Shown here piece by piece: positions 353 to 22,640 of a DNA stretch of 64,000 bases. Each line of letters starts with the position of its first letter. Position 1 is the stretch's first letter. The notes below the pieces were generated by a model that was not told the DNA's origin, ran no database searches, and saw only the letters and a list, made by a program, of their open reading frames with translations. Origin of the DNA: Lingula anatina. Lineage: Eukaryota; Animalia; Brachiopoda. The position numbers and the translations under genes were made by a program. The DNA lies in the NCBI GenBank assembly GCA_051362555.1, contig CM120644.1, positions 18,622,534 to 18,686,533 on the forward strand, given 5' to 3'.

Positions 353-549
353 AGAGAGAGAAGGGGGGTTGATAAGCATTATCACAAACGTATTAATTTG
401 ATCTATTCCCAAGAAAATGAATAAATGTGGTTCAGTGGGTCATGGAAAATATTCCCATGAAGCAAAATCATAATATCTGTAATAACACTGGGAAAAATAA
501 TTTACCGGAATTATATTGCACAATATGTGTATATGTATAGGTACTTTAC

Positions 550-3500
550 CGTTCATACAACAAGAGCAGCTGTGTCTGTTCCCTCCTCTCCGTCCAGGTC
601 CTCCGCCGGGGCTGTAGCGAAGCGGCGGTAAAATACACGTGGGCGTTACCATGGCACCGCAGCGGTAGCACGGGCTGGTAGTGCCCATCTGGGCCCACCC
701 TCTGAAAAATTCTCAATTTGATAATGTTAAAATGAAACCAAAGTAAACATAGATCAAATATTAACCAAAATGGACCTTTTCTTTCAAACCCACCCCTGCC
801 CTGGTTGGGGTACATAAATGCATGAATGGATAAATAAATATACAAACAAAAGAATAAAGAACATAAAAGAGCACCAAACTGTATATGTGACAAGGTTGTT
901 CGTTCCCTCCACATACTGTCGAACTAACTGTGGATCGATCTGTCTCCGAGGGGATTCTAGCTAAATTGCAATCAACTTAAACGGCTTAGATTTCTGTCAC
1001 GCCTATTGAAGCTGCTGGGGTAATTAATTATCGTTAAGCAGCTCCAGTAGGCGTGCCAGACATATAAGCAGCTTAAACTGAAAGCAATTTAGCGAAAACC
1101 CCCTCGGAGATGGATCGATCCTGTCAGAGCGATTTAGGTATGGGAACTGCGGTGTAAAGAAGCTGACAGAGAAAGAGAGAGAGAGAGAGACAGAGAGAGA
1201 GAGACAGAGAGACAGAGAGAGAATGAGAGAGAATTAAAGGCGGCCGTACACTGATAGCCTGTTTCAAGTTTTAAAGAATAAGACCCACCTAAAATCATTT
1301 CCACACTTATTGCAATGAAATTCTGCATAGCCCCACTCTTTATCTCTTGGTATAGCATCGAATTTTACTTTACAGCCATAACACTTTGAAACCTACAAAA
1401 ATAATTTGTCATTTGAAAAAATAACAGGAGATCAAATCTGAATGGTTATAGTTCAAAATATTATTTTCTTTTTTTCTTTTCTGTATCATTACTTTAAGCT
1501 TAGACTAGGTTGCCATTCCTAGATCGACCTGACAGGATCGATTCATTTCCGGGGGGTTCTCGCTAAATTGCTTTCAACTTAAGCGGCTTAGATGTCTGGC
1601 ACGCTCACTGAAGCTGCTAAACGATAATTAATTACCCCCCCCCCCCCCCCCAGCAGCCTCAGTAGGCGTGATGGACATCTAAGCCGCTTAAGTTAATTGG
1701 AATTTAGCGAGAATGCCCTCGGAGATGGATCGATCCACCGTTAGTACGATAGGACCAGTCTCGCACATGTACTGTTTGAGGTTGTTGCTTTGCGAAATGG
1801 CGCTAAATGTCAGAAGTTGAGAAGTCGGAAATGAACCCTGGGCGTCAGTTTCCGCTGCGACCTGTCTTGTACAATAGCGCCTCTTTACGCATTATGAAAG
1901 ACTATGGCGCATTCACAGCAGCGAAGTAACAGATCTGCGGATCAAATATAGCCGATCCACTAGAATGCTTGTAATGTAATCCCTGCGGGGTATCTATTCA
2001 GTGTCTAATCGGCAATTAAGCGGCAAGCTTTTTAGCATGTCGCCATATTTGATCCGCAGATCTGTAATTCCGCTGTTCTGAAGACACTAATATTTCTATC
2101 AGAGCAGACTGTCTACTAGCAAGCTGAGGCCCAGCATAACGGACGAGGGCGGTTTGATCTCCCTGGTATGAAACTTACTAGCTTTCTTGCAGGGACTCGT
2201 CTCCACCAGGAGTGGTCACAGGCTTGGCACCCGAATTGTCTGATCTCTACAGAGAGGCGTCCTCTTTTGGCCTCACTTGTCCGGGGAATAACCTCGATCT
2301 GCAATTATTTAGACGTTTTGATAGTGTGTGTGTGTTTTGGAGGGGGGGGGGCATGCATATGCGTGAGAGAGAGAGAAAGAGAGAGAGAATGTGCGGTTGT
2401 GAAAGGAAGGCAAGTGACGGAGAAAAGAGAGATGGATAGAGCTGATAAACAGGAATATACATGTACATGTTTGTAAATGAAGCATAGAAGAGGATCTCTT
2501 TCTCTCTCTCTCTCTCTCACACACACACATGCACACACACACACTCACTCACACTTAATAAAAATAACTTCAATTAATAACCGAAATAAATATCTTTTTC
2601 CAAGTTAATCTGTGAAACACTATTAATTTACCCAGCTTTTGGCCTCTTCTCGTATTTCCCGTCTCAAATCATCAGGCTTTTCTAAAATAGAAACAGAAAG
2701 CCAGATATACGACTGAAACAGAAATATTTTGTTTATTAAAACAGCGCATTTTCAAAATTCATTTGTTCATTTTAATTGGCCTGTGCCTTTGATCCGAGTG
2801 TTTGCTGCTTTAAAAAAATCTACAAAATGATAAACATTACGGCCTATTAGACAGACAAATCGATTAAAAAAATCATTATTGACAAGATACCATTCTGTTT
2901 ACAATTGTAGGTCTCCACTCACTTTCCAATACATAACAAGCCGCCTCTCTAATATCGAAGTCAAATTTCTCGACAAGATATCTAGCTTCGTTTTCAGTGA
3001 AACGTCCTCGAAAAAGTTCGCGGAATGCATTGAGCTGAAATCAAAACATGTATCATACGTGAGCATGAAAAAGTCGATTTATTACACGAATTAAATAACA
3101 TATTGTTTTTATATGTAGTATTATCATTTGTGTGAGTCGTTTAATACCAAACTTACACACAGGACTGCTTATTTTATACCTGATTACATGTTCTCATGGG
3201 ATTCTACCGACACATCCAGATATTGCAGGTGATGGACTTACATATAATGTAATATAACTTACATAGTATGTCATGGAGTGAATGAGTAAAGAAAATTCTC
3301 GTAGAAAATGGGTTTGAAGATGTATGGCTTAAACAGAAAGTAGACAAAAACTTCATGAAAACTTAGAGACAGTAGTATACAACTTTGGCATAGTAGAATA
3401 TCACAAGAAGACCTCAAGTTGAGAACGTGTAAAACTTTCAAACTTCAGAGAGTTATCTTGATATAATTCAAGATAAAGAAAAACGTCAAACCATAACCAA

Positions 3501-4856
3501 ATTTAGAATCAGCAGCCCCAATTTGCACATTGAAACAGGACGCCATGTCAAAGGTAAACCAACACCATTTGATAAAAAGAAAATGCCACATCTGCCACTC
3601 TGGAGTTATAGAGGATGAAGAGCACTTTTTAATTACCTGCCCCCTGTATACAGAATATAGAAATAAACTATTTCAAATAGTACAAAGCGCCCATACATAT
3701 TTTACAAATTTAAACAACAAAGATAAATTCTTCTTCAGAATGAACAAGAGACGGTGATAATATGCTTGGTTAAATTCATTAACCTCACTTTTGACAAAAG
3801 AAACTGTGCTATATCTTCCACTTTGTGATGTATAAATACTTGCTATAAATATGAAGGTTTGTTTCACATAGTAGAAAATGGCTCTTGCATAATTAATAGG
3901 CCCCCTATCTAAATCTTAGTCACGTATAAAATACTTGTAGTGTGATGCTAGCGTACGATCAGTGCTAATTCATGACAAGATTTTCTGCTGTGAAGAAAAA
4001 GGGCATGAATTAAACTGCTGGGCTGTTGGAATGTTTGTTTCTCCTATATAAGCCTTTATAAGGCTTAATAAACGAATTAGGCGTTTACTAAGACTATATA
4101 TACCTGCAGATCTCAACGTCCATATTAGCCACTAAACCCACGAATTAACCAACACACCGTACAATTATTTAGCACCAACAAAACGTTACTAAGCACTAAC
4201 ATTCAAATTTACGCCTGCCAGTACAGTGTAGGTGGTGTAGGCCCTATGTCGGCCGTAGCTCGTTTTCCACTATAACTAGGCTGGCACAGAGAGAGTTTGA
4301 TGACAATTAGCATAGTTTACGACATTTGCCCAATTATGCCACTCACATATTGCTGGGCAGTGATGTAACGAAGCGTTACTGGGGCGTAGTTAAGACGATC
4401 AGTTTTTGCTATCATTTTTGGTATTTTAGTGGGCAGGCGGTGTCTCTTGGTACGGTTAACAACTATGATTCAGCTAGTCCAAATTCTTGTTTCAAGAGGA
4501 GACCTAAAACAAGCAACTTAAGAAATCCAGGATCATTTAACAACATCCCCTACCCCCCCCCCCTCCGCCCCAACCGAATCATCTAGGCTTCATTATCGCA
4601 GCTGCTGTTAGTATTTGCCTAGCAAAGAAAGATTGATGAATGTCGTGAGCGTTAAATGAGAAAATTTTCGCAGGGGTTGTATATCAGGGGACCCCTCTGA
4701 GCGCCGAACACCGTTATTGCAAAAGATGTACTGTAACTTAAATTGCTTTGAATATCTTTGTGCCCCCCCCCCCCTCCCATGCACACTCAAAATCCCGGAT
4801 CTCTTAATGGAGAACAAATGTACCTTTTTTTCGGCGTCCTCTTCAACATCAGCCAT
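550..4856 (-). CDS. SHFL: Shiftless (SHFL/C19orf66/RyDEN) homologue, copy A; exons 1-6 in window, last exon predicted just left of position 1
   Basis: Exons 4856-4824, 3034-2923, 2681-2632, 2298-2179, 1392-1289 and 701-550 have GT..AG introns in continuous frame. Translation: [35 protein letters not shown]...[83 protein letters not shown]...RHSCS. This matches recalled human SHFL motifs [37 protein letters not shown] and GWAQMGSPSPCYGCG...PTRILPP. Confidence 0.92.
920..1147. mobile_element. Palindromic Harbinger-like MITE (GATCGA.. family), present only in SHFL copy A intron 5
   Basis: Self-complementary ~225 bp sequence. Related copies lie at 1512-1755, 8518-8752, 9709-9921, 14504-14727, 53040-53327 and 62209-62408. 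It is absent from the paralogous site near 9075. Confidence 0.7.
1512..1755. mobile_element. Palindromic Harbinger-like MITE shared by both SHFL copies (paralogue at 8518-8752)
   Basis: Hairpin structure at the same intron-4 position in both arms, so it predates the duplication. Confidence 0.7.
3270..3800 (+). mobile_element. Decayed 3' fragment of a non-LTR retrotransposon ORF2 (RTE-X-like C-terminal zinc knuckle), only in SHFL copy A intron 1
   Basis: Frameshifted translation ...[22 protein letters not shown]...[32 protein letters not shown] matches the R.S.H.L.IE.GR / C..C..EDE.HF...C..Y...R LINE motif. Confidence 0.8.
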
Positions 4857-5570
4857 ATTCTGCGCCAGATGTTCTTCACTCACGGGTATCGACTTGTCCT
4901 TCGTCTGAACACGGCAAATAAACACATATTTAAAACCTTATCGCCCTCCCAAGGTGAAGGCTAAACGAGCACGTTGATATAAATTTGAACTATATCAGGT
5001 CAACTGCACAGTATATATATAGGCTATAGAGCTGTGACAACAATGCTGGCGTCCTTGGCTTTATTTAACATTATTATTTTTTTTTTTTAAAGCCAGCTTG
5101 TGCTTGTAGCATGAAAACATCTAGCACTTGCCCTCTTTAAAGCAGGTACACACTTATGAAGGTTTGAAAATTCACTTACATGCAACTATTTGTCAGAACA
5201 GCGTGCACATTTTGTAGAAGGTTTCACTTCTGGTTATTAACGAGTGACGTCATTGTCGACCCAGATATTTTCACGTGACCGAAATGTCATTAAGGGCGTT
5301 GCGATATGGCTAAACGTCAGTACTGCTTTTTATGTCCTTTCATAGCTTATTTCCGCTACTTAGTTATATAAGCCCCCTTATATGTTTGAAAAGAATGATT
5401 TTAAAAAAGTTTTGGCATGGAGGAGTAGGGTCTGCTAGGAAATTTGTGGCAAATTCTTATTTATTTTTGATGTTTGTAGTCACAGATATGCATGTGTATA
5501 CCTAACCCGTGCGTATAACGTATATTTGTGGGAATTTCTGTGGGAATGGTCCCTAAAAGTATGTCTGTCT

Positions 5571-5617
<47 letters not shown>

Positions 5618-5870
5618 TTCATGCTACTAGCACGTGCTGGCTTTTTTAAATAAAAAAATAATGTTGAATAAAGACACGAACGCCAGCGTTGTTGTCACAA
5701 CCCTATATCTATATACTTTGCAGTTGACCTGGTATAGTTCAAATTAATATCGACGTGCTTGTTTAGTCTTCACCTTGTAAGGCCAATAAGGTTTTTTATA
5801 TGTGTTTAGTTGCCGTGTTCAGACGAAGGACAAGTCGATACCCGTGAGTGAAGAACACTTGGCACAGAAT
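4857..5870. promoter_or_regulatory. Putative shared bidirectional promoter of the two SHFL copies
   Basis: 1014 bp separate the divergent ATGs. The unique core (~5130-5610) contains TTTCACTTC (5222-5230, IRF-element-like GAAGTGAAA on - strand), CRE TGACGTCA (5245-5252), E-box TCACGTGA (5271-5278) and kB-like GGGAATTTCT (5530-5539). Confidence 0.55.
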
Positions 5871-8800
5871 ATGGCTGATGTTGAAGAGGACGCCGAACAA
5901 ACCGAACAAAAGGTAGGCCTTCATTTGTTCTCCATTGAGAGATCCCTGATTTTGTGTGTGCAGGGGGAGGAGGGGGGGGGGGGATAAAGACATAAAAAGC
6001 AATATAAATTACAATTGTAGCAATAACGGTGTTCGGAGCCCAGAGGGGTCCCCTGAATAGAACCCCTGCGAAAATTTTCTCGTTTAACGCTCACTCACGG
6101 TTCTCAATCTGTCCTACGTGTAGAACGTGTTTTTCTATTTTAGTGAAAAATGTTCTTAATCTGTTCTAGGACATTCTGAGGGACTTCCCAAAAACAGTTC
6201 TCGAATTGTTACATTTAATACAGAACAACATTACGATTGTAAAAAAAATACAATAAATGCTCTAGAATAGATTGAGAACAGCTAGTGAACGTTAAATGAG
6301 ACAAATTTTCGCAGGGGCAGGGGGTGTTATTAGATTATCTTGATCATGCCCTTTTACTTCACAGCAGAAAATCATATCTGTGAATATCTTATGGATAATC
6401 AAAAGCCTATTTTGTCACATTTTTTCTCTGTCGTGTTCGATAGGGACATGAAAAATTACATGTAAGTCCATCACCTGCAATATCTGGATGCAGGCCCGTA
6501 GCCAGGGGGGGGTTCGGGGGGGGGGGTTCGAAAGAACCGCCCCTTTTGTCGGGAAAAGGTCCATTTTGGGTAAAATTTTATCTAGGTACACATAAGTTTT
6601 ATTTTAAAAGGTCCACTTTTTCAGAAAAAGAACCCCCCTTTTGAATTTGCTGGCTACGGGCCTGCGATGTGTCATTAGAATAAATCCCATGAGAAAATGT
6701 AATCAGGTATAAAATAAGTAGTCCTGTGTGTAAGTTTGGTGTTAAATCACTCACACAAATGATAATTCTACATATAAAAACAGTATGTTATTTAATTCGT
6801 GTAATAAATTGACTTTTCATGCTCACGTATGATACATGTTTTGATTTCAGCTCAATACATTCCGCGAAGTTTTTCGAGGACGTTTCACTGAAAACGAAGC
6901 TAGATATCTTGTTCAGAAATTTGATTTCGATATTAGACAGGCGGCCTGTTATGTATTGGAAAGTGAGTGGAGACCTACAATTGTAAACAGAATGGTATCT
7001 AGTCAATAATGAGTGTTTTTATGTAATTATCAATTTGTCTACCTATTAGGCAGTAACATTTATCATTTTGATGAATTTTTAAAGCAGAAAACACTCGGAT
7101 CAAAACATAGGCCAATTAAAACGAACAAATTAATTTGAAAATGCACTGAGTTAAATAAATAAATATATCTGTTACATTCTATATTCGATTTTCTGTATTT
7201 GTTATAAGCAACGCCTGAGGATTTGAGACGGGAATTACGAGAGGAAGTCGAGAGCGAGGTAAATGAATTATGTTTCACAGATTAACTCGGCAAAAGATAT
7301 TCATTTCGATTATTCATTGATGTCTTTGTATTTTATGCGCGCCAGCGCGCGCGCGTGTGTGTGTATGTGTGTGAGAGAGAGAGAGAAGAAGAAAAAGAGA
7401 CCCTCTTTTTATGCTTCATTTACAAAAATATGTTTCCTGTTAATCAGCTCTATCCATCTCTCTTTTTTCCGCCACATGCTTTCCTTTTACAACCGAAAAT
7501 TCTCTCTCTCTTTCTCTCTCTCACGCACACGCATGTCCCCCCCCTCTCCCCTCACACACACACTATCAAAACACATCTAAATACTTTCAGATCGAGACCA
7601 TTCCTCGGACAGAAGAGGCTAAAGAAGGACGCATCTCGGTAGAGATCAGACAATTCGCGTGCCAAGCCTGTGACCACTCCTGGTGGAGACGAGTCCCTGC
7701 AAGAAAACTAGTAAGTTTCCTTACAGCGAAATCAAACCGCCCCCGTCCGTTATGCTGGGCCTCAGCGTGCTTGTAGACAGTCTTCTCTGATAGAAATATT
7801 AGAGCGCATTCAGAAAAGCGGACTAACAGATCCGCGGATCAAATATGGCGACCAACTAAAAAGCTTGCAGCTTAATTCTCGATCAGACACTGTATAGATT
7901 TCCCGCAGGTATTACGCAACAAGCATTCAAGTGGATCGGCTATATTTGCTCCTCAGATCTGTTAGTCCGCTGTTCTGAATGCGTCCTTAGTCTCTCATTA
8001 TGCGTAAAGAGGCGCTATTGTACAAGACAGGTCGCAGCGGAACCTGACGCCCAGGGTTTATTTCCGACGTCTCATTTTCGGCACGGGGGAGACTGATTGT
8101 GCCCGGAAGTGACGTGTAGTGGTGTTAGAAGCGAAGCTAAGTGGTCATTTTAAGCTGGAGGTGAACGGGAGAGAAAACGTGTAGTCGGAGGAAAAAGAAG
8201 TTTTCTAAACAACATGGTAAAATAACACTTTTACTTTACGCATTTTGGACAGAGAATACTTGTAGAAATAATAGGTGCATGATATGAAAACGTGACACGG
8301 AACTTGAAGGTGCAAAATCGTGCTTTATTTGCTGTCAATTTGTTTTGAAATACAAATACCAGCGCGCCAAAGAGCGTCAAGGGAAAATAATTCCCGGGAG
8401 ACTATAAATCGTTGTCATGTGGAATTTAAGCATTTAACCATTTCCGACGTCTCATTTTCCTACATTTAGCGTCATTTCGCAAAGCAACAACCTCAAACAA
8501 TACATGTGCGAGACTGGTCCTATCGTACTAACTGTAGGTCGATCTATCTCCGAGGGGATTCCCGCTAAATTGCAGTCAACTTTAGCGGTTTAGATGTCCA
8601 TTACGCCTACTACGCTGCTAGGGGGTAACTAAACTGTCGTTTAGCAGCTTCAGTTGGCGTGCCAGACATCTAAGCCGCTTAAGTTGAAAGCAATATAGCG
8701 AGAAACCCCCGGAAATGGATCAATCCTGTTAGGGCGATCTAGCTATGGAAACCCAGTCTAGGATTAAAATAATTATACAGAAAAAAAAACAAGAAAAACA

Positions 8801-9020
8801 CTTTGAATGATAACCCACCAGAATTGACCTTGTATTATTTCTCAAAAGACAAAATTATTTTTGTAGGTTTCAAAGTGTTATCGCTGTAAAGTAAAATTCG
8901 ATGCTTTACCAAGAGATGAAGAGTGGGGCTATGCAGAATTCCATTGCGAGTGTGGACACAATTTTAAGTGAGTTTTATTCTTTAAAACCTGAAACAGGTT
9001 TTCAGTGTATTGTCGCCTTT

Positions 9021-9064
<44 letters not shown>

Positions 9065-10021
9065 TTCTTTACACCAACAGTTTATGTGGTGGGAACGAAC
9101 AACCTTGTCACTCATATGATGCTTCTTTGTGCTCTTTTTTCTTGTGTCTGCATATTTATTTACCTATTCATGCCTTTATGTATCCCATCCAGGGCCGTAG
9201 GCTCGTGGGGTGCAAAAGAAAAGGTTCATTCTGGGCAACATTTGATCTAGGTACACAAAGCTTTCATTGTAAAAGGTTTCCTTTTTTTGTAAAAAGACCC
9301 CCCCCCCCCCTTTTGTGAAATAGCTGGCTACGGACCTGCCTGCATCAAAGTGAAGTTGTCGGCGATAATAATCGTGTCCACATTCTAAGTTATCAAACTG
9401 GGACATTTTCAGAGGGTGGGCCCAGATGGGCACTACAAGCCCGTGCTACTACTGCGGTGCCATGGTAACGCCCACGTTTATTTTACCGCCGATTCGCGGA
9501 GGACCTGGACGAAGAGGACGGAATAGACACAGCTGCTCTCTTTGTGCTGAAGGTAGTGTACCTATACAGGGTTCACATATTGTGCAATTCTATTTCGGTA
9601 AATGGTTTTTCCAGTGTTATTGCAGATATTGTGAGTTTTGCTTCATGGGAATATCTTTCATGACCCACTTAACAGAAATTATTATTTTTCTTGGTAAGAT
9701 CACGTCAGCTCTGTTCCCATAGATTTTAGATCGATCTATCCCAGCGGGGAGTCTCACTAGATTACTTTCAGATAATCCGACTTAAATGTCCGTCCCGCCT
9801 ACTACAAGCTGTAAGAGGGTAATTAACTTTCGTGTCAGCCCGGCTGACAGCTATTTAGCGTGAACCCCCAGGGAGTTAGGTCGATCTAAAGTAGGTCGAT
9901 CTAATCTATGGAAATGGGGTGTAACACGTTTGTTCTAATGCTTATCACCCCCCCCCCCCCTCTCCCCCGGCTTGGTCTTGGTTTGTCATTTGAAATTATA
10001 ATAATAATAATAATAATAATA

Positions 10022-10060
<39 letters not shown>

Positions 10061-12505
10061 TAATGTTGAGGGGTGCGGTGGCCCACAAGTGCACTCCAAA
10101 TTCCAAACGACACTCCCAATTCTAAACCTCACACCGAATACTTAAACTTCACTCTCAATTCTTAAACCCCACTCCAAATTCGTAAACCCCACTCCGAATT
10201 CGCAAACCTCACTCCGAATTCGTAAACCCCACTCCGAATTCGTAAACCTCACTCCAAATTGAAAAAGCTCACTCCGAATTCGCAAACCCCACTCCGAATT
10301 CGTAAACCCCACTCCGAATTCGTAAACCTCACTCCGAATTGAAAAAGCTCACTCCGAATTCGTAAACCTCACTCCGAATTCGTAAACCCCACTCCGAATT
10401 GAAAAAGCTCACTCCGAATTCGTAAACCTCACTCCGAATTCAAATTTTAACCCCGTTCACTGCCGTATAAAGTCGGAAGTAATATTCTAAGGGTCGGTGT
10501 ATGGGGGGGCAAAGTGATTTCCATTTCGTCAGAAAATGAAAAAACGGCCGTTTTTCCTTTTCATTTGATAAATTGTCAAAATGAAATGGAAAATCAACCT
10601 TGATTTTCGTTTTTCCTTTTAAAATGAAAACTGGAAAAACGAGATTATTTTTCGTTTTTTCCGCTTTTTTATAACATAAAAAAAACAAAAAACGACAGAT
10701 TTCCAAACGTGATAGAAAATAGAAACATCCACTGTTTTCCCATGTCAAGAGAGTGAAATATATTAGAAAATACGTCCTTTTCTCCTTCTGTGAAGAAATG
10801 AAGTATCGAAGCATGTTCATTTTTTGCCATTATGGTTTCAATGGAAAAACGGAAGTCAGTTCGTTTTTCTGATTTTCATTTTGGAAATAAAAATTGGAAA
10901 ACGGAAGTATATAAAGACATACAGACAGAAAAATGGCAGTCCTTGAAACTTTGACTTCACAAGACTAGGAGTATTCCTGGTGTTGTATAAGTATTCGGAG
11001 ATTTAGTAAATAACTTTAAGAAAAATGAATTAAGGAATTTCAGAAATTCTAAAAACTGTGGACAATTATGGATAAACAATGCACCATCGCTGTGTGTGGT
11101 TTAGAAATATGAAATAGGCCCCTAGGTTAGTGCCTAGGTCTTAGTGGAGAAGAAATGAAGGTTGGATCTGTTTCTATGGGGGCGTCTCGATAGTCCGAAG
11201 GTTCATTGGTCCGAAGGTTCATTGGTCCGAAAATTCGTAAATTTTTCATCAGATTTTCAACAAAAAGGTTCATTGGTCCGAAGGTTCATTAGTCCGAAAA
11301 TTAAAGGTCCATTGGTCCGAAGGTTCATTAGTCCGAAGGTTCGATAGTCCGAAACATTTTAAGATGTTCTTCGATTTTAAGAATTATAATTACAAACGGA
11401 ATCTAAGGGTGTGTTCCCAACGAAACTATCATTCTACGTAGATTGATCCAACTCCACCAGGATTCTCACTGTATGCAATCAGATTAGCAATCCTGGAGCT
11501 GCTAGGGGGTGATTAACTTTCGTGTGAACTCAGCTTCTAGAATCTTTATCATTTCGTTTTGAGTGCGACCGAAACGCACGTGAAAATTATCCATATAGGT
11601 CGTATTGTTTCCGTGAACTACTCTTTACAATGTGGGGAAGTTTGGGGATATGCAATGGCTACCCTTTCCAACTCATGAACACCATACATGTTACACATGA
11701 AATATTGAATAAAGATTGGAACGCATAAAATGAGAGGACGCCTATAATGACATTTTCTTACGATGTCTTAAGATACTATGATTAGAATTCAAATTCTTCT
11801 AACCTACACATTTCTTAAATTATGTAAAAGTTATAGAATAATTGCATTTCCAAACAAACTATGTTGTTGTTCGCACAGCCCACTCCCCTACCCTCCCCCC
11901 CCCCACCCCCCCCCCCCCAAAAAAAAAAAAAAAAAAAAAAAAACAGCCGTTCCGCCAGCAGTACTGTATTACTCATAGGGATGAGGATGAATTAACTGGA
12001 GTGTAAACTTGGCATATAAACAAAAATTACGAGCATTTACGAAAACAAGCTTTTCCCTTACTAGGCCTTTAAACATAAAAATTGTATCAGAATACAGTAA
12101 TATGCTCAAATATCCACAAATAGTAATACATATTTAATTCCACCCCCTCTTCCCCAGCAATACTGAAGGTGCTGAAACGTTTATAATCTGAAATAGAAAT
12201 GTGGCAAAGCCATATCAACCCGGTGGGCCTATTTATTTATTTATTTATTTATTTATTAAACGTAAAGTACAAGTGAGAAGGCAGTTTGAACATGTTGAAA
12301 TATTCTAAAACAGTTAAACTTCTAATCTGATGAACAACATCAAAAATGCTGTCTTTGTAACAAATTCATTTAAACGAAGAAAAACGTACTCTGCAAAAAG
12401 TAGATACACTTGTGACTCGTGAGAAAATTTCCATTTGATTTTACAAAATAAACCTTTGCAGTTAAATATCGTCAACTTCCAATCCCATGAAAAACATCAA
12501 GATCT

Positions 12506-12552
<47 letters not shown>

Positions 12553-15500
12553 TTGTAACTAATGTAATATGCTAGTATTGACGTTATTTTTGCCCGTGCA
12601 GACCTAACTTTTAAACCCTCTACCAGGGCGACTGATAGATTTTTTACAGATATTCACAGATGTGTCTCTAGATAACTAGGTGGTCATTTTGAGACACCAA
12701 CAATTTTCGGGGCCCTTTAGCGGGCCCCAGATCCTACGCCAAGGGGGGTGGGGGCTTTGCATCCGCAGACCCCCCTTCAAATAATCTTGGATCCGCCCCT
12801 GTACATGTAATTCACTATACACTTATACAGCGGGCCTACATTCGGACTATCGAACCTTCGGACTATCGAACCTTCGGACTAATGAACCTTCGGACCAATG
12901 AACCTTCGGACTATCGAACCTTCGGACCAATGAACCTTCAATGCACATTCGGACCATTGAACCTTCGGACCAATGAACCTTCGGACTATTGAACCTTCGG
13001 ACTATCGCTACGGCCCCGTTTCTATAAGGACTTTTTGTGACAAGATTTTGATAGAAGAAGAAATTTTTATCATGAGTGAAATATTTGAATGTTTATTAAG
13101 TCGCATGGACTGTAGTGCTGGTATAGCCTCAATTGATGTTCTTTTAACTAAGTAGCCTACTGGTGCGTGCGACTGGGCAAAGCAGTTATGTAACTGCAAA
13201 AATTTTGTGTTTCTGTGGTTCTCACTGGATAAATTAATAAAATGTTTGTTAGAATCTTTGCACCACTGCGTCTTGTTGCTGTTGAATGTTATTGTACCTT
13301 AGTCAAAGAGGTTATTGAGTTAGTTTTTACAAATCTAAGGGCCCTTTGCGCAATGCATTTGCTTTATTATCTCATGTACGTAATCACAACCTAATAAACA
13401 TATTATGCATTTCCTCTTCCTAAACATTTTAATGCAACCTTGGGGGGGGGGGGGGTATTTTATTTTATAAAAATTCACACATTTGCATCTTGAGTTTGAC
13501 TCTCTCTTTTTACTGCAATACGAGCGTTGGGTCGGACAATCTCATATATTCGTCGTGTTGATAAAAATAAGCTGTACATAGAAGGAAAAATAAGTGCAAG
13601 ATTTCTCTCGTTTCAGTTTTTACTGCTGTTACTGTACAAACCAGCAACTTATCAAGTAACAAATACAGGGGGGGAGGAAGTCCGCGGGTAAGCGTGTCAT
13701 TGTAATATTTTAATATTTAACCTTTCAAGAAAATAAAGATGTTCAAAAAACAGATCTTGGATGGGAAGCCGACCCTTCCCCCCCCCTCGTTGGCGTGGGT
13801 TTCGGGGCCCGCTGAAGGGCTCCGAAAAATGTTGGTATTTATTTTAGAGAGTACCATTTGGTATGGTTTAGAACTATGATTCAGCTGGTCAAAATTCTAA
13901 TTTCAAGAGGGGATCATTGGTGTGATATTTTTCAGAAATCGAAGGTGGGGTCAGGATCCCCTAATACCCCCATAAATTTCTCCACTTAAAATGTTCACCA
14001 ACCTTAAAAGAAATAATTGAGAATAATAGAAGAGTAAAAAATTAAATGAATGAAATAAAATGGGACATCAAGATATGGATTTGATATACAGCTGTACCAG
14101 GAATAAATTAAACTGTATCGATCTTCTGAAGGAGTGAATGAGTACTGAGTATATTATCTAATAAGCTCTTGACTTCCTAGCCCGTAGCTGTGTTTCAAGC
14201 ATAATTAGATGTTTTGAAGGTACATTAAATGAATATGACGGGAATAAAATAACTAACCTACATCCCCCCCTTAATCATAAAATGTTCCTGACGCCTTTCT
14301 GGCCTTTGAAAACCGTTTTGGTGGGTTTTTCTCTCTTAAAAATTTGCTTACAGCTAGGATAGACGATAATAATTTTGGTTCTATCTTACAGATAGCCCTC
14401 CTACTCCCTTTCGGCCCTTTGACCGTAGATAACTGATTAGCATTTTCTGACCAAACTTTCAAATAAGAGGAAACACGCGCTGCAATAAATCATTAAACAA
14501 TAAGGGTGCTTTCCCAGAGATTTAGATCGATCTAAAGATTAAGTTTTAGATCGACCTAACTCCCTAGGGGTTCAGGCTAAATTGCAGTCAGCCGAGCGGA
14601 CACCATAGTTAATTACCCCTTACAGCATTTAGTAGGCGGGACAGACGCTTAAGCCGGCCAAGCTGACAGTAATCTAGTGAGACTCCCCACAGGGATAGAT
14701 CGATCTAAAAATCTATGGAAATGGGGTGTAAGACTGATTTTTAAAGAAGTAAGACTGATCAAGGATGAGAACAAAGACAAATTGTTTAAGTTTTAAATTG
14801 TGCCGTTGAAGCTAAATGGTAGGCCTATAGGCCTATTATCTACAAATCAGCGGATCTACAATAAACAACAACAAAAATATGATAATAATCAAATACTTTA
14901 TTAAAACCTAATTGTCCATGAAAGTTATTCACAGTGGGTAGAGGATTAAAACAGTCTGATTAGAATATATTTTCAGCACACAAACAGCTGGCACATGCAT
15001 TGTTTGCAATATACCAGTCTGTTGCACAAAGTTGAACTCTCTTGTGCACACTTGTAATGGATCTCCGTTTCTGTAATGCCTTTAAGTGGAAGTTTTAGAC
15101 CAACGTCAACAGCATATCCCAAAATTCTGCATTATTTATAAAATTAATTCATTGCATTTAAGCTTTATCTGACAGAATTTAGTCACCAATAACTTATAAA
15201 CTTGAAGCGGCTGCCATTTCTCTGTCTGTGTGTCTGCACGTCCGTTTCTCCATTTTCATTCATAAAATGAAAATCAGAAAAACGAACGGACTTCCGTTTT
15301 TCTATTTGATTCGGAAATTGAATAATGAACACTTTTTAAAGCTGTCATTTCCTCAAAAACAGGAATATAAGGGCATTTTATGATTTATTTCACCTGTTAA
15401 ACATTAGAAAAAACGAAAACGGTCGATATTTATATTTTCTACCGCATCGGGGATCTGTCGATATTGTATTTTGCATTTTATAGTAAAATATAAAAAACGA

Positions 15501-18500
15501 AGGCAATTTCCGTTTTTCCATTTTTCATTTTAAATGGAAAAACGAAAACTGAGTTTCATTTTCCATTACATTTTGGCCATTTCTATAAAATGAAAATGAA
15601 AAACGGCCGTTTTTTCATTTTCTGACGAAATGGAAATCACTTTGCCCCCCCATACACCGACCCTAAGATGGGCTAGGGGATTTTGCCAATAGAGGGCTTC
15701 GTGTGAAAACTAGTTATTTTTCATACTACTTGGTGCGCTGTATTCCCATTCACAAAATGATGACGTAGACGTACATGTATGACCCTTTTAAGCTCAAGGA
15801 AATAGAAGAAATGAAGAAAATAGGGATAAACATACATGTACTTAACAGCAAGTCACAATTAAAATATATTATGTTTACGTGTTTTCTTGTGTGTGTCGTT
15901 TTAAGGAATTATACATGTATTATGAATATGAGAACAGAATTACGAGTTGAAACAGCGTTGGAAGGAACAGATTTATGCACTACATGTATGTAAATAAACG
16001 TGCGTTATTTATTATTTACAACTTCAAGCATTTTCACATGATTATTTTGAAATGAATGTTTAATACAGATAACATGTTTCAGGGTGTCGACATTGGCTTA
16101 TATTATTTATAAATGGGCAAAACAATCCGTATTATCATATACTGTAGGCCTACACATGTACCTGTTATATAACCGAGTATACTTGATAATAGTAATTAGT
16201 AGCCCCTCACTCTTTTGCAGCAGAAATATTCATCTAAGATCATAGATAATCTAATAATTGAAATTAATCAGATTAATTACACTTTATTAATCGATTTCGA
16301 ATGAATAACATGCAGTGGTGGATGGGGGGGGGGGGGAGGCGTGTGAGGGGGGTCTTGACCCCCCTTTTGAATTCTGTAAAAAAAAATCACACCAATGTTA
16401 AAATTAGAATTTTGAATAATAGTTCTAAAACGTACCAAATAGCACTGTTCGCCCTATAAGGGGGGGGGGGGGGGGCAGCTCTGCATATGCAGCCTGTCAT
16501 TCCAAAAAAAAAAAAAAAAACAAAAACAAAAAAAAAAAAAACAGATCCCCCTTCAAATAATCCTGGATCCACCCCTGACATGTATGGATTATTAGTAGTA
16601 TCAATCCTATGTTGAGAAAATTGGGAGCAGTGTCACTTAATTTGTCCTTTTATTTATAACGGTAAACCTGTAAATTGCTTCTTGCTCCCAATTTGTGTCC
16701 CTGGCGAGAGAGTGTGTGTGTATGTGTGTGTGTGTAATTGTGAAAAATACTGAAAATAGCTGGAGAAGTCAATTGACCTTGTGACGTAAACTGTTGGTTT
16801 ATTTTCGTAAGGTATGTATCACGCAAACCAAAATGTAACACAATAACCTTGCGCGCGTTATACGTCACAGGTCTTGCGTAACTACCCACGTGCTACGATT
16901 TTTCCCTTGGGGGGGCAGCAAGCGGCCATTTTGTACAGGAGCAATGTATAGATGGGTGAAAACGATACGTTGTTTTTAGCAAAAAACGATGTCCCCGGGG
17001 CGAAACTGCCAACACCAAAAGTAAAGGAGCATACCAACGTTGTTTTGAAACGATATGGTTAGCCTGTCAGTGACGAGTTAGGGAGAAAAGAGCAGCACTG
17101 ATAGCAAGGTACTGTACTGGTATACACGTGAACCGGCAAAGTTAATGATGATTTCATGTTGCAAAAGCATAATTAAATCAGTTAGTTATTTCCAAACGAT
17201 ATTATTTGAATAGCAGATACGTAAATCAAACTAACAACAATAAACATTTTTGATGACATTGAATATCAAAACCTGCGGTGCACGATAGGTTGGGGAGGAC
17301 ACTGCCACAGCAATAAATGCATGGATTTGTTACACAACACCATATGCTTGTGTCATTGTTAACTCTGTGGTATTATTACTCAATTTACTACTCAAATTAA
17401 TACCTGATACTATTTCTCAGGCTACCAAGTACAAATCAGCTTATTTTGTGGCAATTGACCTCCATGTTCCATCTTGTGTGCAGGTTGTTTATTATTATTA
17501 TTATTTGTTCAAGCACATTTTAATAAAGTGTCTATGCTTTAACAAGAGAAATTTATGCTGAATTTTAAAAGATTAAATCATCAGTAGTATGTACAATTAA
17601 AGCTATTAATTTGATTATGCATATTTGATTTTCAATTATCTTGATTATGATATGAGGTTTCTGCATTTTTCTCTTGTCCTCGAATCAATATCTAACAAGT
17701 AAATTGATGGTGCTTTATTACAATTTTTGCTTTATACTTTCAGATGTAAAAACTGTGTAGCAGTTGGTAAAGCTGTAGAGACTGATGTGAGCATAGATCA
17801 GGGGAAATGGTATTAGAGAAACTAGGAGGACAAGACATAGATAATGTACTAGTAGATCCATCATCGCAGCAAGGATAGATGGTGTGATCTTGTCCCTGAA
17901 GCTATGCCACCAGTTTTCAAACTGGTTGAGTCCTTACTAAGACAAGCTGCTGCGGTGTGAATCGCAATATGTACATTCAGGTTATATGTGGCAGATTTAT
18001 GACAAAAGAGACCTTCACAATATACTTCAAAGAAGTTATTCTTGCATCTATGCCTCATCAAAAGTACACAGTTACAGTGACTAGAACATTGTCTGCAAAT
18101 AGTGAGGCAGTGAAGGCTGCAAGGTGCCATTGTTTTTCAGTATTAAAAATGACAGTATATGTTATTTATTTATTTATTTTTATTTCTCATTTTTAATGGG
18201 AGGGAGACTCACTTTGTTCTTTCTATGCCCATTCAGTTAAGGGTTGATGGCAATATATGGTAAATCTGTCATGCCTGTATGTAGAATTTCTCTGGCTCAA
18301 ATTTCTACATTTATTGGGTGCATTATGAAGTTTCCTGACTGATTAATGAGGTTACTTGTAGAAATATCTTGCTTACACACATTTTGTGATATTTTTACTA
18401 CTTTATACATATGATTATTCACATCTCATCAGTGGTGTGTGAAAGGTACTTGGTATTTGCATTTTAGAACTGTAGATCTGTGTACCAGCAGGGTTATATT

Positions 18501-20070
18501 TCATATATCTGCGAATGTGTCTTAAAATAAGCTTCATGTTTGATAATTACTTGGTTTGAAATAAGTAAATAAATAACCCAAATAAAGTCAATTCATTTTA
18601 TATTTCACATAATTTGTTTTTATTATTCTTCTAAGCATTTAATCATAACAGTTCCCATCATTATACTGTTATTGTGTAATAACATTGAAAGTTTCCAAGT
18701 TTTTATTAACAGGTTGATGCTAACGTATTACAAATGAATGTAAGCATAAAAGCATATTTACTACTCAAATGTATCAAACGTAACACTGGCATAATACCGG
18801 TAAAGATACAGGTAAAGATGACAGCATTGATAACTGGGTTTACAGCGCTGTTAGTGCAGCTTGGTTAGTGTCAGATTGTTATCTGATAAAGTTTGCTACT
18901 AGTTCCTGAGAACAAAAGGCACTTGATAAAATCACAAAACACCTGTAGAAAATAGAGTATACCCTATACCTGCCCAACATTGATTTGTTCAGATTCTTGA
19001 CTAGGGGTGCGTTACAGGTGTCAAGGGCCAAGACTTGAACTTAGGGGTTTGGCATGTCACTGGGCATTACCCCCGATTTCTGTCCAAATCTAATAAAGCC
19101 TCAGTTGCTTAACTTTCTCCAAATTTCCAATATTTACCGGTTGTGTTGTTTAATGCTTGGGGTCTCTTCTCTGGCGGCGGTTAATTGTGGGCACCTGTGC
19201 GGCCTGTCAACGCACCTAGATTCACTTTTGCCGGTGCCACATTTTCAATTGCCGTAAATATCAAATTCATGAATAGAATAAGGAAAAATGACAGTTATGA
19301 AAAAATGTTTGGAAGTACCTGTCACCTTCGCCACAGTAACCATATGGGCTGTGATGCCCCCCCACCACAGGCGACACCTTGCGGAGCAAGCGTGCGTAAT
19401 CCAGGGTGCAACTGAAAATAACCTTGACGCGCGACCTTATTCGCACTGTTTGCTAAAACTCTCTCGAACCTTTCACTGGAAGCGCCCAGCTAAAAAAAAA
19501 ATTATTTGTCCCAGACGAATTACTGTTTCATAAGATTTCTCGAAGAGAACTTTGATGAGAATGGGCTTAGTGGAATTGGGAGTGAGCTTTACGAAGAGAA
19601 CTTTGATGAGAATTGGGAAAGTGGAATTGGGAGTGAGCTTTTTGAATTCGGAGTGAGGTTTACGAATTCGGAGTGATGTTTGCGAATTCGGAGTGAGCTT
19701 TTTGAATTCGGAGTGAGGTTTACGAATTCGGAGTGAGCTTTTTCAATTTGGAGTGAGGTTTACGAATTCGGAGTGAGGTTTGCGAATTCGGAGTGAGGTT
19801 TATGAATTCGGAGTGAGGTTTACGAATTGAGAGTGAAGTTTAAGTATTCGGTGTGAGGTTTAGAATTGGGAGTGTCGTCTGGAATTTGGAGTGCACTTGT
19901 GGGCCACCGCAGAGGGGGGCAAAACGGTTTCATCCCCCAAGTTGTTCCAACTTTTCTGGATCCGAAACACACACAAAACCCAAGCGATTTTCTAACCTAT
20001 GGATATCAGTATGGTATCGTATGTAACTATACCTCTTTAGTCCATATTATTTAACAGCAAGATCAACCAT

Positions 20071-20105
<35 letters not shown>

Positions 20106-20517
20106 CTTTTGAATGCCATAATGTATTGTGCTATCTTACATAAAGCACTGTGTTCCGCTATGAAATAAAAAGTGTAATGCGACATTGCCTTTTCTACTCC
20201 ATATCTAATTGTGTTAGAAGTCTTTTGTATTTTATCGTTACATATTGTTTACAATCAATAAAAATAGAATAACTCCTCTTTTGCCCCAAGGTCGTCCGTG
20301 CTGTCACCCTCAGGTCAGACGAAAGTTTGGTCTGCCACGTGTTGTCAACAGCAGTAACGTTCACGACAGTTCCGGTTCCACCGTGGCCACGTTCTTGCCA
20401 CAGGACGATCTGATAAATGACGACGATTTCATCGCATACCCACGCCATTCCCCCATCAACGAGGGAAGTGATGAAGGAAGTGATGACGAAAGTGACGGAG
20501 TAAGTGGCGCTCCATGA
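5871..20517 (+). CDS. SHFL: Shiftless (SHFL/C19orf66/RyDEN) homologue, copy B; complete, 7 exons, 263 aa
   Basis: Exons 5871-5912, 6851-6962, 7209-7258, 7591-7710, 8867-8967, 9413-9552 and 20291-20517 total 792 nt, and the phases are consistent. Motifs [31 protein letters not shown] and [15 protein letters not shown] are present. The final exon [38 protein letters not shown] plus an acidic tail matches the SHFL C-terminus ([32 protein letters not shown]). Confidence 0.93.
6491..6664. mobile_element. ~170-bp non-autonomous DNA transposon CAGGCCCGTAGCC...GGCTACGGGCCTG, 5-bp TSD (hAT5-like); other copies at 9190-9338, 22325-22505, 23037-23204, 28566-28744 and 38095-38252
   Basis: TIRs are visible. 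TSDs are GAGGT (22325 copy), ATGAA (23037), CTGTT (28566) and GGATG/CGATG here. It is absent from the paralogous site in copy A. Confidence 0.8.
8060..8459 (+). other. 360-bp insertion flanked by a 20-bp direct repeat in SHFL copy B intron 4; resembles a captured promoter plus first exon
   Basis: ATTTCCGACGTCTCATTTTC occurs at 8060-8079 and 8440-8459, and copy A has a single empty site (~1815-1832). The insert contains CCGGAAGTGACGT (8103-8115) and AACAACATG|GTAAAA (ATG 8214-8216). Confidence 0.75.
10090..10442 (+). repeat. 20-bp tandem array (ACTCCGAATTCGTAAACCTC) in the left TIR; mirrored at 19570-19895
   Basis: Head-to-tail units without unique spacers; the reverse-complement array lies at the right end. 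Confidence 0.95.
10491..15663. mobile_element. 5.2-kb non-autonomous PIF/Harbinger-like element with ~420-bp imperfect TIRs, nested in the IS3EU-like element
   Basis: Ends are GGGTCGGTGTATGGGGGG... and ...CCCCCCATACACCGACCC. The TAA TSD lies at 10488-10490 and 15664-15666. Arm 10491-10910 matches 15241-15663. Confidence 0.8.
11178..13017. mobile_element. 1.8-kb non-autonomous DNA transposon with 8-bp TSD and 16-bp subterminal repeats (superfamily uncertain)
   Basis: TSD GTTTCTAT lies at 11170-11177 and 13018-13025; termini are GGGG...CCCC. GGTTCATTGGTCCGAA arrays occur at 11190-11352 and, inverted, at 12841-13005. Confidence 0.85.
16952..18133 (+). pseudogene. Decayed SAP-domain + SWIM-type zinc-finger gene fragment (transposon accessory protein of the YqaJ/lambda-exonuclease type)
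   Basis: 16952-17108 reads [34 protein letters not shown]/(frameshift)[17 protein letters not shown] followed by a GT donor, which is SAP-like. 17980-18133 reads [38 protein letters not shown], the typical lead-in to a SWIM CxC motif, then truncates. Confidence 0.55.
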
Positions 20518-21386
20518 CCGCCGCATAGTCGGTCGCGGCCATGATGGAACCCAAGGGGATGACGGGAATGGGTGGCGTGGAAGCGGCGAGGCCGGTGTTA
20601 CGTGGCAGAGAGTCCTTCATAGCCCGTATATGGATAGTGCAGGCGTACCTTTTAGGTGTTTGAAGAAGTTATAAAGTACCAAGTGTGTGTATATTGTAAG
20701 CCGCCACTCTCAGTTTCTTGTAATAATTCGAAAGTTAAACTGTAATTTTGGACCAGCAGACTCCGTCGGGTGACGTAATTTTCAAAATTTTCTTTCGGAC
20801 AGGTACGTGTGTGTAAGAATCATACAGTTTATACATGTTTCACTCAAAAATTAATTTGATCTCAATGTTTTCAGTAAGGAGCCTGTTGCACGACAACGTA
20901 TTTGCCTGACGTAACATTAGCATCACCCCCACGCCACACGGCCATCGTTTTTTTAAACCCCCACGATTTCTTCTTGATTCATTTATGTAGAATTTAAATA
21001 CGTTTTGAAATAAATCATTGCTTAGCAATCTCAAGTTTTGCTGCTTTGCATTTTTGTTTATCACCAGACTCAACAATTTTGGCACACGTTCTTGTTGTAG
21101 TACGGCATAGCTTTCTATGAATTTATCCTGATTGAATAAGAACAAAAAATTAGGTGTAAACGTTATTATTTTTTAGTGAAAGCAGCTGAACGTTGACGAT
21201 TTTGCTGCATTGTGACGCGTTGGTCATATATATGTGTGTATTTCTGTATATATGTATATTGCAGAGGTATCCTTTCGCATTCGCATACTTGATTATAAAC
21301 AATCTGTACATTGTAATTTATTTGAAACACCTTGACTAAACTTGCCACAAGGAGAAAAATGTTTAAAGCTGTGACCAAAAAGGAAT

Positions 21387-21468
21387 CGACGAGGATGAGA
21401 TTCGAACTCACGCGGGGAGACCCCAATGGATTAGCAGTCCATCGCCTTAACCACTCGGCCACCTCGTC
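21387..21468 (-). tRNA. tRNA-Ser (anticodon GCT)
   Basis: GACGAGGTGGCCGAGTGGTTAAGGCGATGGACT-GCT-AATCCATTGGGTCTCCCCGCGTGAGTTCGAATCTCATCCTCGTCG is 82 nt, with a long variable arm, intact A/B boxes and a T5 Pol III terminator 6 nt downstream. Confidence 0.97.
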
Positions 21469-22640
21469 ACGTGGTGTCTGTCAGGTTTATGAATAATAAA
21501 TAATGGCCCAGATACAGGTAATCGTATATAAATATATACATCGTTATTCTGTATCCCCCATACATGATAGGGATTTTCTTAAGTTTTTTCTCCTAGTTTT
21601 ACTTTTCCAACAGATGGTATTTGAATTTTATAAAGGAGATAAACAATTCAATTATTCATTTAAGAAGAGCTCGGTCACTTATTAAACCTCTCTCTTTAAT
21701 AATGTATAGGCTATCATTTGACCTAACGCAAGTTGTTTTCTCATTGTCATTGAAAGACTACATGTATGTGGCGACTTCAATGATAAGTTCAATGGAACAC
21801 TTTCTTGTGTATAAGAAGGAGAAAGAGGACAAATACATGTTTTCGATGTTTCTCATTTAAATATATTCTACGACCTACTGTACACTCCTCTGTATATACT
21901 ACCAGTATAGACCCGTTTGGCCGAGTTGGCAGGCAAAAAGACGATGAATTTCTTCTAATATTTCGCCCAAAGTAATACATAAATAAATGAAATATTATGA
22001 AGAACAACAGAAAAACATAATAAAAAAGTCATATTTGAGAGTTCCAAACAGGATGACTAGATAGATGGATATTTTTTTATTTATTCCGAATTGTGAGGAT
22101 AACCAAAAATAAAGAAAACATCTCGCTCTAACATTAGTTCTTTAGCAAAAAAAGTGATCTCTTTTTTAAAACTGCTATAAGTTTTCTTAACATTATGATC
22201 AAAAACTTATGTATATTCTTCAGCAAGTAATCATCAACAAGATCTGCTCGCAGTCTATTAAAAAATTATAGTTCCCTACTTTTATATACTATTTCAGAGA
22301 ACCCTGATTTCTAAGGGTAGAGGTCAGGCCCGTAGCCGGGGGTGGGGGGGTGGGGTGGGGGGGGGGGTCGAAAGAACCGCCCCTTTTGCTTGGAAAAGGT
22401 CCACTCTGGGTAAACTTTGATCTAGGTACATGAAGTTTTATGGGAAAAGGTCCACTTCTTCAAATAATAAGAACCCTCCTTTTGAAATTGCTGGCTACGG
22501 GCCTGGAGGTTATTGTGAATATAAAAGGTTAGAGACGATATGGCTGACGATATCAAGAGTTATTGATCCTTTTTCAGACTACATCCTTCTCTCTGACTAC
22601 AGGGTGCGCTAGTTGTCTGTGACAAAATTACATACTTTAA

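Follow-up and report, generated by a model that had tools for sequence, protein, structure and literature searches.

The brachiopod Lingula anatina carries two genes resembling the antiviral gene Shiftless (SHFL) in a 64,000-nucleotide stretch of contig CM120644.1 (assembly GCA_051362555.1, forward-strand positions 18,622,534 to 18,686,533; hereafter the window, to which all coordinates refer), and the locus raises the question of what such a pair represents in an invertebrate. The two genes stand head to head and are transcribed apart, copy A from the minus strand and copy B from the plus strand. The account favored here, with a probability of roughly two in three, is that a recent inverted duplication gave rise to an open head-to-head Shiftless pair, which likely shares a promoter and encodes SHFL-like zinc-finger RNA-binding proteins. 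The pair is best interpreted as a product of the usual birth-and-death turnover in an immune-type gene.

Inverted duplication and gene structure

In a BLASTN self-comparison of the window, 399-5118 and 5615-9702 form the arms of an inverted duplication and match at 76-85% in blocks. The ATG of copy A is located at 4856 (-) and that of copy B at 5871 (+), leaving 1014 bp between them. Bidirectional gene pairs are those with divergent starts within ~1 kb, and by distance between the two ATGs A and B would fall in this class; their starts, expected upstream of the ATGs, would be closer still. The intron phases are identical in A and B (0, 1, 0, 0, 2, 1), and the exon lengths of the two copies are offset by in-frame indels of 9, 3, and 12 bp. 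The first-pass annotation of this DNA had described two spliced genes of the same exon-phase structure that originated by inverted duplication, with ATGs 1014 bp apart and with the last exon of B displaced by 10.7 kb, and all of this is borne out.

Copy B consists of seven coding exons (792 nt, an open frame of 263 amino acids) with GT-AG borders at 6/6 introns. Exon 1 (5871-5912, 42 bp) begins at the ATG and is followed by exon 2 (6851-6962, 112 bp), exon 3 (7209-7258, 50 bp), exon 4 (7591-7710, 120 bp), exon 5 (8867-8967, 101 bp), and exon 6 (9413-9552, 140 bp). Exon 7 (20291-20517, 227 bp including the stop codon), the 5' edge of which was set by spliced reads, encodes the last cysteine of the third zinc finger (ZF3), a Ser/Thr phosphorylation loop, and an acidic tail. 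This last exon is displaced because a 9.8-kb element occupies intron 6, which spans 9553-20290 (10,738 bp).

Six exons of copy A lie in the window and provide 190 open codons; five introns have GT-AG borders, and exon 6 is followed by a GT donor. These are exon 1 (4824-4856, 33 bp, ATG at 4856, phase 0), exon 2 (2923-3034, 112 bp, helical bundle), exon 3 (2632-2681, 50 bp), exon 4 (2179-2298, 120 bp, first knuckle of ZF1), exon 5 (1289-1392, 104 bp, second knuckle of ZF1 and a CxxC first knuckle of ZF2), and exon 6 (550-701, 152 bp, second knuckle of ZF2 and start of ZF3), all on the minus strand. Exon 6 carries a 12-bp insertion relative to B. Since positions 124-178 align by BLASTN with 20069-20015, the end of B intron 6, exon 7 of A should lie ~100-170 bp to the left of window base 1. 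The proposal that both copies are intact thus stands for B, which is complete; A is open over six exons, and its exon 7 falls beyond the window. Within intron 6 of A, the segment 190-350 has the same orientation as its B counterpart (9972-10040 plus 19912-19980, interrupted by the large intron 6 element), as after a local re-inversion inside the inverted arm.

Copies A and B share 83% protein identity and 90% coding DNA identity, with a synonymous divergence (dS) of 0.15 and a nonsynonymous divergence (dN) of 0.10 over 185 codons. Their introns mismatch at 12-14%, a level far exceeding the 1.6% heterozygosity that L. anatina is reported to have (PMC4595640), and A and B are therefore paralogues, not haplotypes. 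It is highly improbable that the assembly simply joined two haplotypes of one gene in inverted orientation. Beyond the intron mismatch, each arm has acquired insertions of its own (in intron 1 of A and in introns 4 and 6 of B), and RefSeq likewise lists two models, on a single 360,381-bp contig. Judged by this divergence, the duplication is young, yet too diverged for an assembly artefact.

All coding indels between A and B (3/3) are multiples of three. Introns 2-5 contain 36 frame-breaking indels in 1649 aligned bp, a rate that predicts 12.3 in the 565 bp of exon, where none was observed (P ~4e-6, an optimistic value given that the intron indels include repeat-prone sequence). Intron 1 was left out of the count, as its alignment, broken up by the 1.4-kb insertion, had inflated it. 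In simulated neutral drift, an open frame with 11 intact zinc ligands survived in 3% of the 5000 runs made for each copy. Because frame-breaking exon indels are absent and so few neutral simulations survive, we consider both frames to be kept open by selection, with weak constraint on most residues.

Family membership and conserved residues

The assignment of both copies to the SHFL family proved correct. Relative to the curated cut-off of Pfam family PF15135 (UPF0515), which is 29.8 bits, single exons scored higher in 4/5 stretches submitted for B (34.9, 40.1, 46.8, and 37.7 bits for exons 4-7, respectively) and in 3/3 submitted for A (30.7, 45.8, and 43.3 bits for exons 4-6). B exon 2 alone matched no Pfam family. 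Among database proteins, XP_013407020 comes nearest, with 84% identity to A and 81% to B, and by sequence it matches human SHFL (PDB 9KBO) with an E-value of 3.6e-52. This protein served as the stand-in for A and B in structure modelling. In a Foldseek search of its model, which has a mean predicted local distance difference test score (pLDDT) of 81, 9KBO was the only match below an E-value of 0.001 (E-value 5e-19, probability 1.00).

According to the human structure (PMC12716391), 12/12 zinc-ligand positions are matched in B, and the 11 ligands encoded in exons 1-6 are present in A. The cysteines of ZF1 and ZF2 (human C112/115/132/135 and C155/158/174/177) are found 8/8 in A and in B. In B exon 5, the first knuckle of ZF2 reads CxC, as it does in 26/65 distant relatives that could be parsed in a survey of 145 proteins (80 did not parse). 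The HCCC site of ZF3 (human H203, C205, C210, and C223) is present in B in a compact spacing and is a predicted zinc site; in A, the last cysteine position would fall in exon 7. This compact form occurs in 37/295 fetched proteins. From the phosphorylation loop, B retains S249, T250, and T253, together with their partners R121, R126, K127, and H244.

These data suggest that the A and B proteins likely have an SHFL-like RNA-binding role linked to translation. Inhibition of programmed -1 ribosomal frameshifting (-1 PRF) specifically is a more tentative prediction and is judged less likely than not. Alanine mutants of human SHFL at R13, R97, R138, R198, and K227 lower -1 PRF inhibition (PMC12716391), and human SHFL also restricts human immunodeficiency virus 1 (HIV-1) independently of frameshift inhibition (PMC11055011).

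Transcripts and the spacer between the copies

Transcription was examined in six of nine RNA runs labelled with the species (designated X and a number). The runs may be pools, and their alleles differ from both window copies. Exons of A are covered in X7 and X8, respectively, by 11 and 8 reads at 663, 20 and 10 reads at 2649 (exon 3), and 20 and 23 reads at 4846 (exon 1), and A-type reads reach at least 4920. X1 and X4 have no reads at positions 663 and 2649. Exon 7 drew 26, 36, and 32 reads in X7, X8, and X9, respectively, and none in X3. In three of the four runs mapped on this exon, 4, 9, and 8 reads (X7, X8, and X9) extend upstream past the exon start. Compared by eye, their consensus upstream of exon 7 equals the end of A exon 6 at 29/30 letters and that of B exon 6 at 23/30, with an agreement of 0.78-0.92 that points to mixed reads. 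Since these reads join an A-type exon 6 end to exon 7, an A-type transcript has an exon 7; it is spliced from exon 6 to exon 7 and is expressed in some samples, which lends indirect support, from other animals, to an intact copy A. Loose read ends at exon 7 show a tail resembling XP_013407020. Overall, A-type expression varies by sample, as it is present in X7, X8, and X9 and near absent in X1, X4, and X3. Spliced reads had been expected from both copies, and they were found for the A type, in animals other than the one assembled, and not for the B type, which was essentially unseen in the six runs.

At 20324, 20347, or 20366, the B base is carried by at most one read per run, and the reads that map on B exon 2 carry A bases at 6857 and 6869 (14/14 and 6/6 at the latter). 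A could thus be the working gene, and B a duplicate with low expression that is under drift or in early decay. The reads fit the A exons far better, dN/dS is not different from 1, B has received the 9.8-kb insertion, and the RefSeq model that shares B exon 5, XP_013407016, carries a frameshift in exon 6. However, B is free of stops and frameshifts and retains every splice site and zinc ligand although the introns have diverged by 13%, its CxC knuckle occurs commonly among the parsed distant relatives, and the alleles of the RNA animals differ from both copies, such that the absence of B-type reads may reflect population differences. On balance, decay of B is rather unlikely.

A group of results weighs against the open, SHFL-like pair favored here. 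B-type transcripts are essentially unseen, and 27/27 reads differ from B at 20440-20451. The dN/dS of A and B is 0.68 (95% interval 0.37-1.32), and constraint on their amino acids is therefore indistinguishable from neutral; the repeat-prone intron sequence behind the indel test belongs here as well. The XP_013407020 model superimposes on 9KBO with a template modelling (TM) score of only 0.50 and a root-mean-square deviation of 12 Å. The phosphosite S256 aligns to a proline, so that 3/4 loop residues are kept in B, and 2/5 of the residues tied to PRF inhibition are still basic, with R13, R97, and K227 replaced by N, E, and Q (the alignment at R97 being the least sure of the residue comparisons). 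Finally, a frog SHFL that is 53% like the human protein failed to restrict hepatitis C virus (HCV) in human cells (PMC10433982), and homology therefore gives no guarantee of activity.

The inversion axis is occupied by a unique spacer of 496 bp (5119-5614), a candidate shared promoter. It is flanked by the duplicated upstream regions of A (4857-5118, minus strand, ~260 bp) and of B (5615-5870, plus strand), the latter defined by the BLASTN arm match; 4645-5118 matches 6094-5615 at 84%. Within 60 bp, the spacer contains a site like an interferon regulatory factor element (IRF-E) at 5221, a palindromic cAMP response element (CRE) at 5245, and a palindromic E-box at 5271. The spacer counts were reached in 4/53, 0/53, and 1/53 background tiles, respectively, for motifs that were chosen after the sequence had been inspected. 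From these features, a promoter in the spacer shared by A and B is plausible. A good splice-donor match at 5179 (-), with an acceptor-like site near 4905, could mark a non-coding first exon of A; against this, RNA reads continue unspliced beyond 4920.

The first-pass annotation had gone further, to a co-regulated two-gene defence module. In its full form, a bidirectional promoter would be induced by double-stranded RNA (dsRNA) or virus, and both proteins would inhibit -1 frameshifting. The 1014 bp between the ATGs, the three motifs within 60 bp of the spacer, and the differences in A-type expression among samples are in line with such a module. In addition, position 20348 has three different bases in X8 (G 3, T 5, and A 3 of 11 reads), which means either two expressed loci, as the module would have it if X8 is one diploid animal, or a pooled sample. 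Nevertheless, the module is unlikely. Exact interferon-stimulated response element (ISRE) core, NF-kB, and gamma-activated sequence (GAS) sites were sought between the ATGs and none was found, the motifs were picked post hoc, B-type reads are nearly absent and the runs are possibly pools, and several residues that human SHFL requires are altered.

Insertions, mosaic models, and relatives

The element in B intron 6 (10074-19911, 9.8 kb) resembles a DNA transposon. Its 288-bp terminal inverted repeats (91%) are accompanied by 20-bp subterminal tandem repeats, and the insertion is marked by a 6-bp target duplication (GAGGGG). Nested inverted-repeat elements occupy 10486-15668 and 11178-13017, and a stop-ridden, coding-like remnant near 17750-18145 gave no meaningful Pfam match and Atlas matches under 0.9. 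A 1.4-kb insertion in A intron 1 (3217-4644), seen as a gap between BLAST blocks, is absent from B. It includes a broken remnant resembling a long interspersed nuclear element (LINE) at ~3280-3760, recognised by eye, and RNA reads of related copies map there in X7 and X8. The insertion in B intron 4 (8079-8438, plus strand, ~370 bp) is absent from A and is bounded by a 20-bp direct repeat; it resembles a copy of the 5' end of some other gene. It contains ETS-like and CRE-like motifs, as well as an ATG that precedes a splice donor, and RNA reads are present on it even in X1. As for the neighborhood, a tRNA-Ser(GCT) gene lies at 21386-21469 (-), this one tRNA being the only Rfam match in 1-24000. 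A leucine-rich-repeat protein with a likely membrane segment is encoded in a long single open reading frame at 23321-25588 (-), and exons at ~35974-36249 and 45149-45454 (-) appear adenylate cyclase-like by eye.

Two L. anatina RefSeq models, XP_013407016 and XP_013407020, with accessions four apart and located on the same 360,381-bp contig, are already named RyDEN/SHFL homologues. Exon 5 of XP_013407016 equals B at 7/7 differing sites, and its exon 6 is frameshifted, with a shifted-frame tail that matches the shifted frame of A exon 6, including the 12-bp insertion (exon 6 was judged by this shifted-frame comparison, a direct residue tally being unreliable after the frameshift). XP_013407020 is mostly A-like in exon 5 (4/7 sites) and is without the 12-bp insertion. 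Because the affinities of exons 5 and 6 conflict in these models, exchange between the inverted arms, giving mosaic alleles, is suggested, mainly from one indel and the protein models.

The favored history of the pair would therefore run as follows. A fold-back event with the spacer as its axis would have created the pair, separate insertions would then have entered each arm, and the arms may have exchanged sequence with each other. A and B would be driven from a shared promoter, and the encoded proteins would, like human SHFL, hold back structured or viral RNA on ribosomes. One copy would be steadily expressed; the second has stayed open in this genome and is frameshifted in the RefSeq model.

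That invertebrate SHFL homologues might already be annotated was anticipated, and this is the case. RefSeq names them in Lingula, in the scallops Ylistrum and Argopecten, in the oyster Saccostrea, and in the gastropod Gigantopelta, and a transcriptome table for Octopus includes a homologue (PMC6522055). A and B are ordinary additions to this family. Duplicates also recur elsewhere. In Pecten maximus, XP_033749282 (580 amino acids) represents two adjacent SHFL paralogues, head to tail, fused in one annotation, and in Gigantopelta aegis, XP_041374877 and XP_041361425 are 90% identical and both lie on a 54.6-Mb contig. The Argopecten matches were rejected as separate genes, as they are isoforms whose accession numbers run consecutively; one of these, X2, contains the N-terminal portion of the upstream paralogue. 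A quick tree of 40 rows groups the four Lingula sequences in a single clade, apart from the mollusc duplicates, with a Shimodaira-Hasegawa-like approximate likelihood ratio test (SH-aLRT) value of 99. Young gene duplicates arise at a high background rate in Lingula (PMC4595640). The paired architecture, which had been put forward as the notable part of the locus, is thus real and less notable than proposed, and the head-to-head layout alone is a common outcome of duplication in the Lingula lineage.

The first-pass annotation took the animal probably to lack canonical interferon. An interferon-like response to poly(I:C) has been reported in oysters (PMC8218723), and a homologue of an interferon-stimulated gene in a lophotrochozoan is therefore no paradox. 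Our literature search, which left most subscription papers and bioRxiv supplements outside its reach, returned no paper on the Lingula pair or on invertebrate SHFL function. Look-ups of terms in two reviews (PMC9230503 and PMC10750386) and in PMC10747187 found no discussion of invertebrate SHFL. In one supplementary file of a Nematostella poly(I:C) study (PMC8476169), which may use gene ids only, 0/6 SHFL names occurred.

The family comprises 310 clusters at 50% identity, and two of ten members looked up were named from an amoebozoan and a diplonemid. Judging from such sequences, the SHFL family extends beyond animals. No paper reporting this was found in a weak search dominated by taxon-word matches. 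SHFL-type zinc-finger domains are seen in Balamuthia mandrillaris (KAL6058073) and Namystynia karyoxenos; in KAL6058073, the domain is fused to a long N-terminal part that appears exonuclease-like by eye. A family far older than interferon, with amoebozoan and diplonemid members, is what would be expected if A and B served a housekeeping role in ribosome or mRNA surveillance and antiviral work were a vertebrate co-option. Mammalian SHFL, which is strongly conserved, is constitutive in liver (PMC10433982), and one proposal is that it arrests ribosomes that have frameshifted spontaneously (PMC12716391). On the other hand, the recurrence of young duplications, the presence of a frameshifted copy and of mosaic alleles, and the near absence of reads in 3/6 runs would better suit an inducible or tissue-limited immune gene, and a housekeeping role is accordingly somewhat improbable.

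More speculatively, the locus could be a dsRNA-inducible, recombining antiviral locus, in which exchange between the inverted arms yields mosaic alleles that differ in the zinc-finger surface and the compact-ZF3 proteins block viral frameshifting. The compact third zinc finger occurs in protist relatives as well. This is quite unlikely; if true, it would place an anti-recoding defence far older than vertebrate interferon in an invertebrate arms race. For the inverted Shiftless pair as favored here, the value is that of test material, given that the pair differs from human SHFL at residues tied to frameshift inhibition. The presence or absence of this activity in Lingula SHFL would bear on whether it predates vertebrate interferon or came later.

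Compared with known systems, the Lingula RefSeq pair is closest, as it also consists of two SHFL-family models close together, and XP_013407020 has the compact ZF3 too. However, neither model equals A or B, and both are mosaic. Pecten and Gigantopelta, like Lingula, have two SHFL copies in one genome, but by the tree their duplications are independent of the Lingula pair, and the two Pecten copies, duplicated long ago, share one orientation. Human SHFL (also C19orf66, RyDEN, or IRAV) has ~40% identity to Lingula SHFL and shares with it the helical N-terminus, the three zinc fingers with all ligands, the WWRRVP motif, the Ser/Thr loop, and the acidic tail. Lingula SHFL has seven coding exons, whereas the human gene has eight exons (PMC10750386). 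The Lingula ZF3 is nine residues shorter than that of vertebrates and molluscs (HxCxxC-x5-C, in contrast to human HxC-x4-C-x12-C). Unlike human SHFL, B has CxC in ZF2; R13, R14, R97, K227, and S256 are not retained in Lingula, and the gene is present there as two head-to-head copies.

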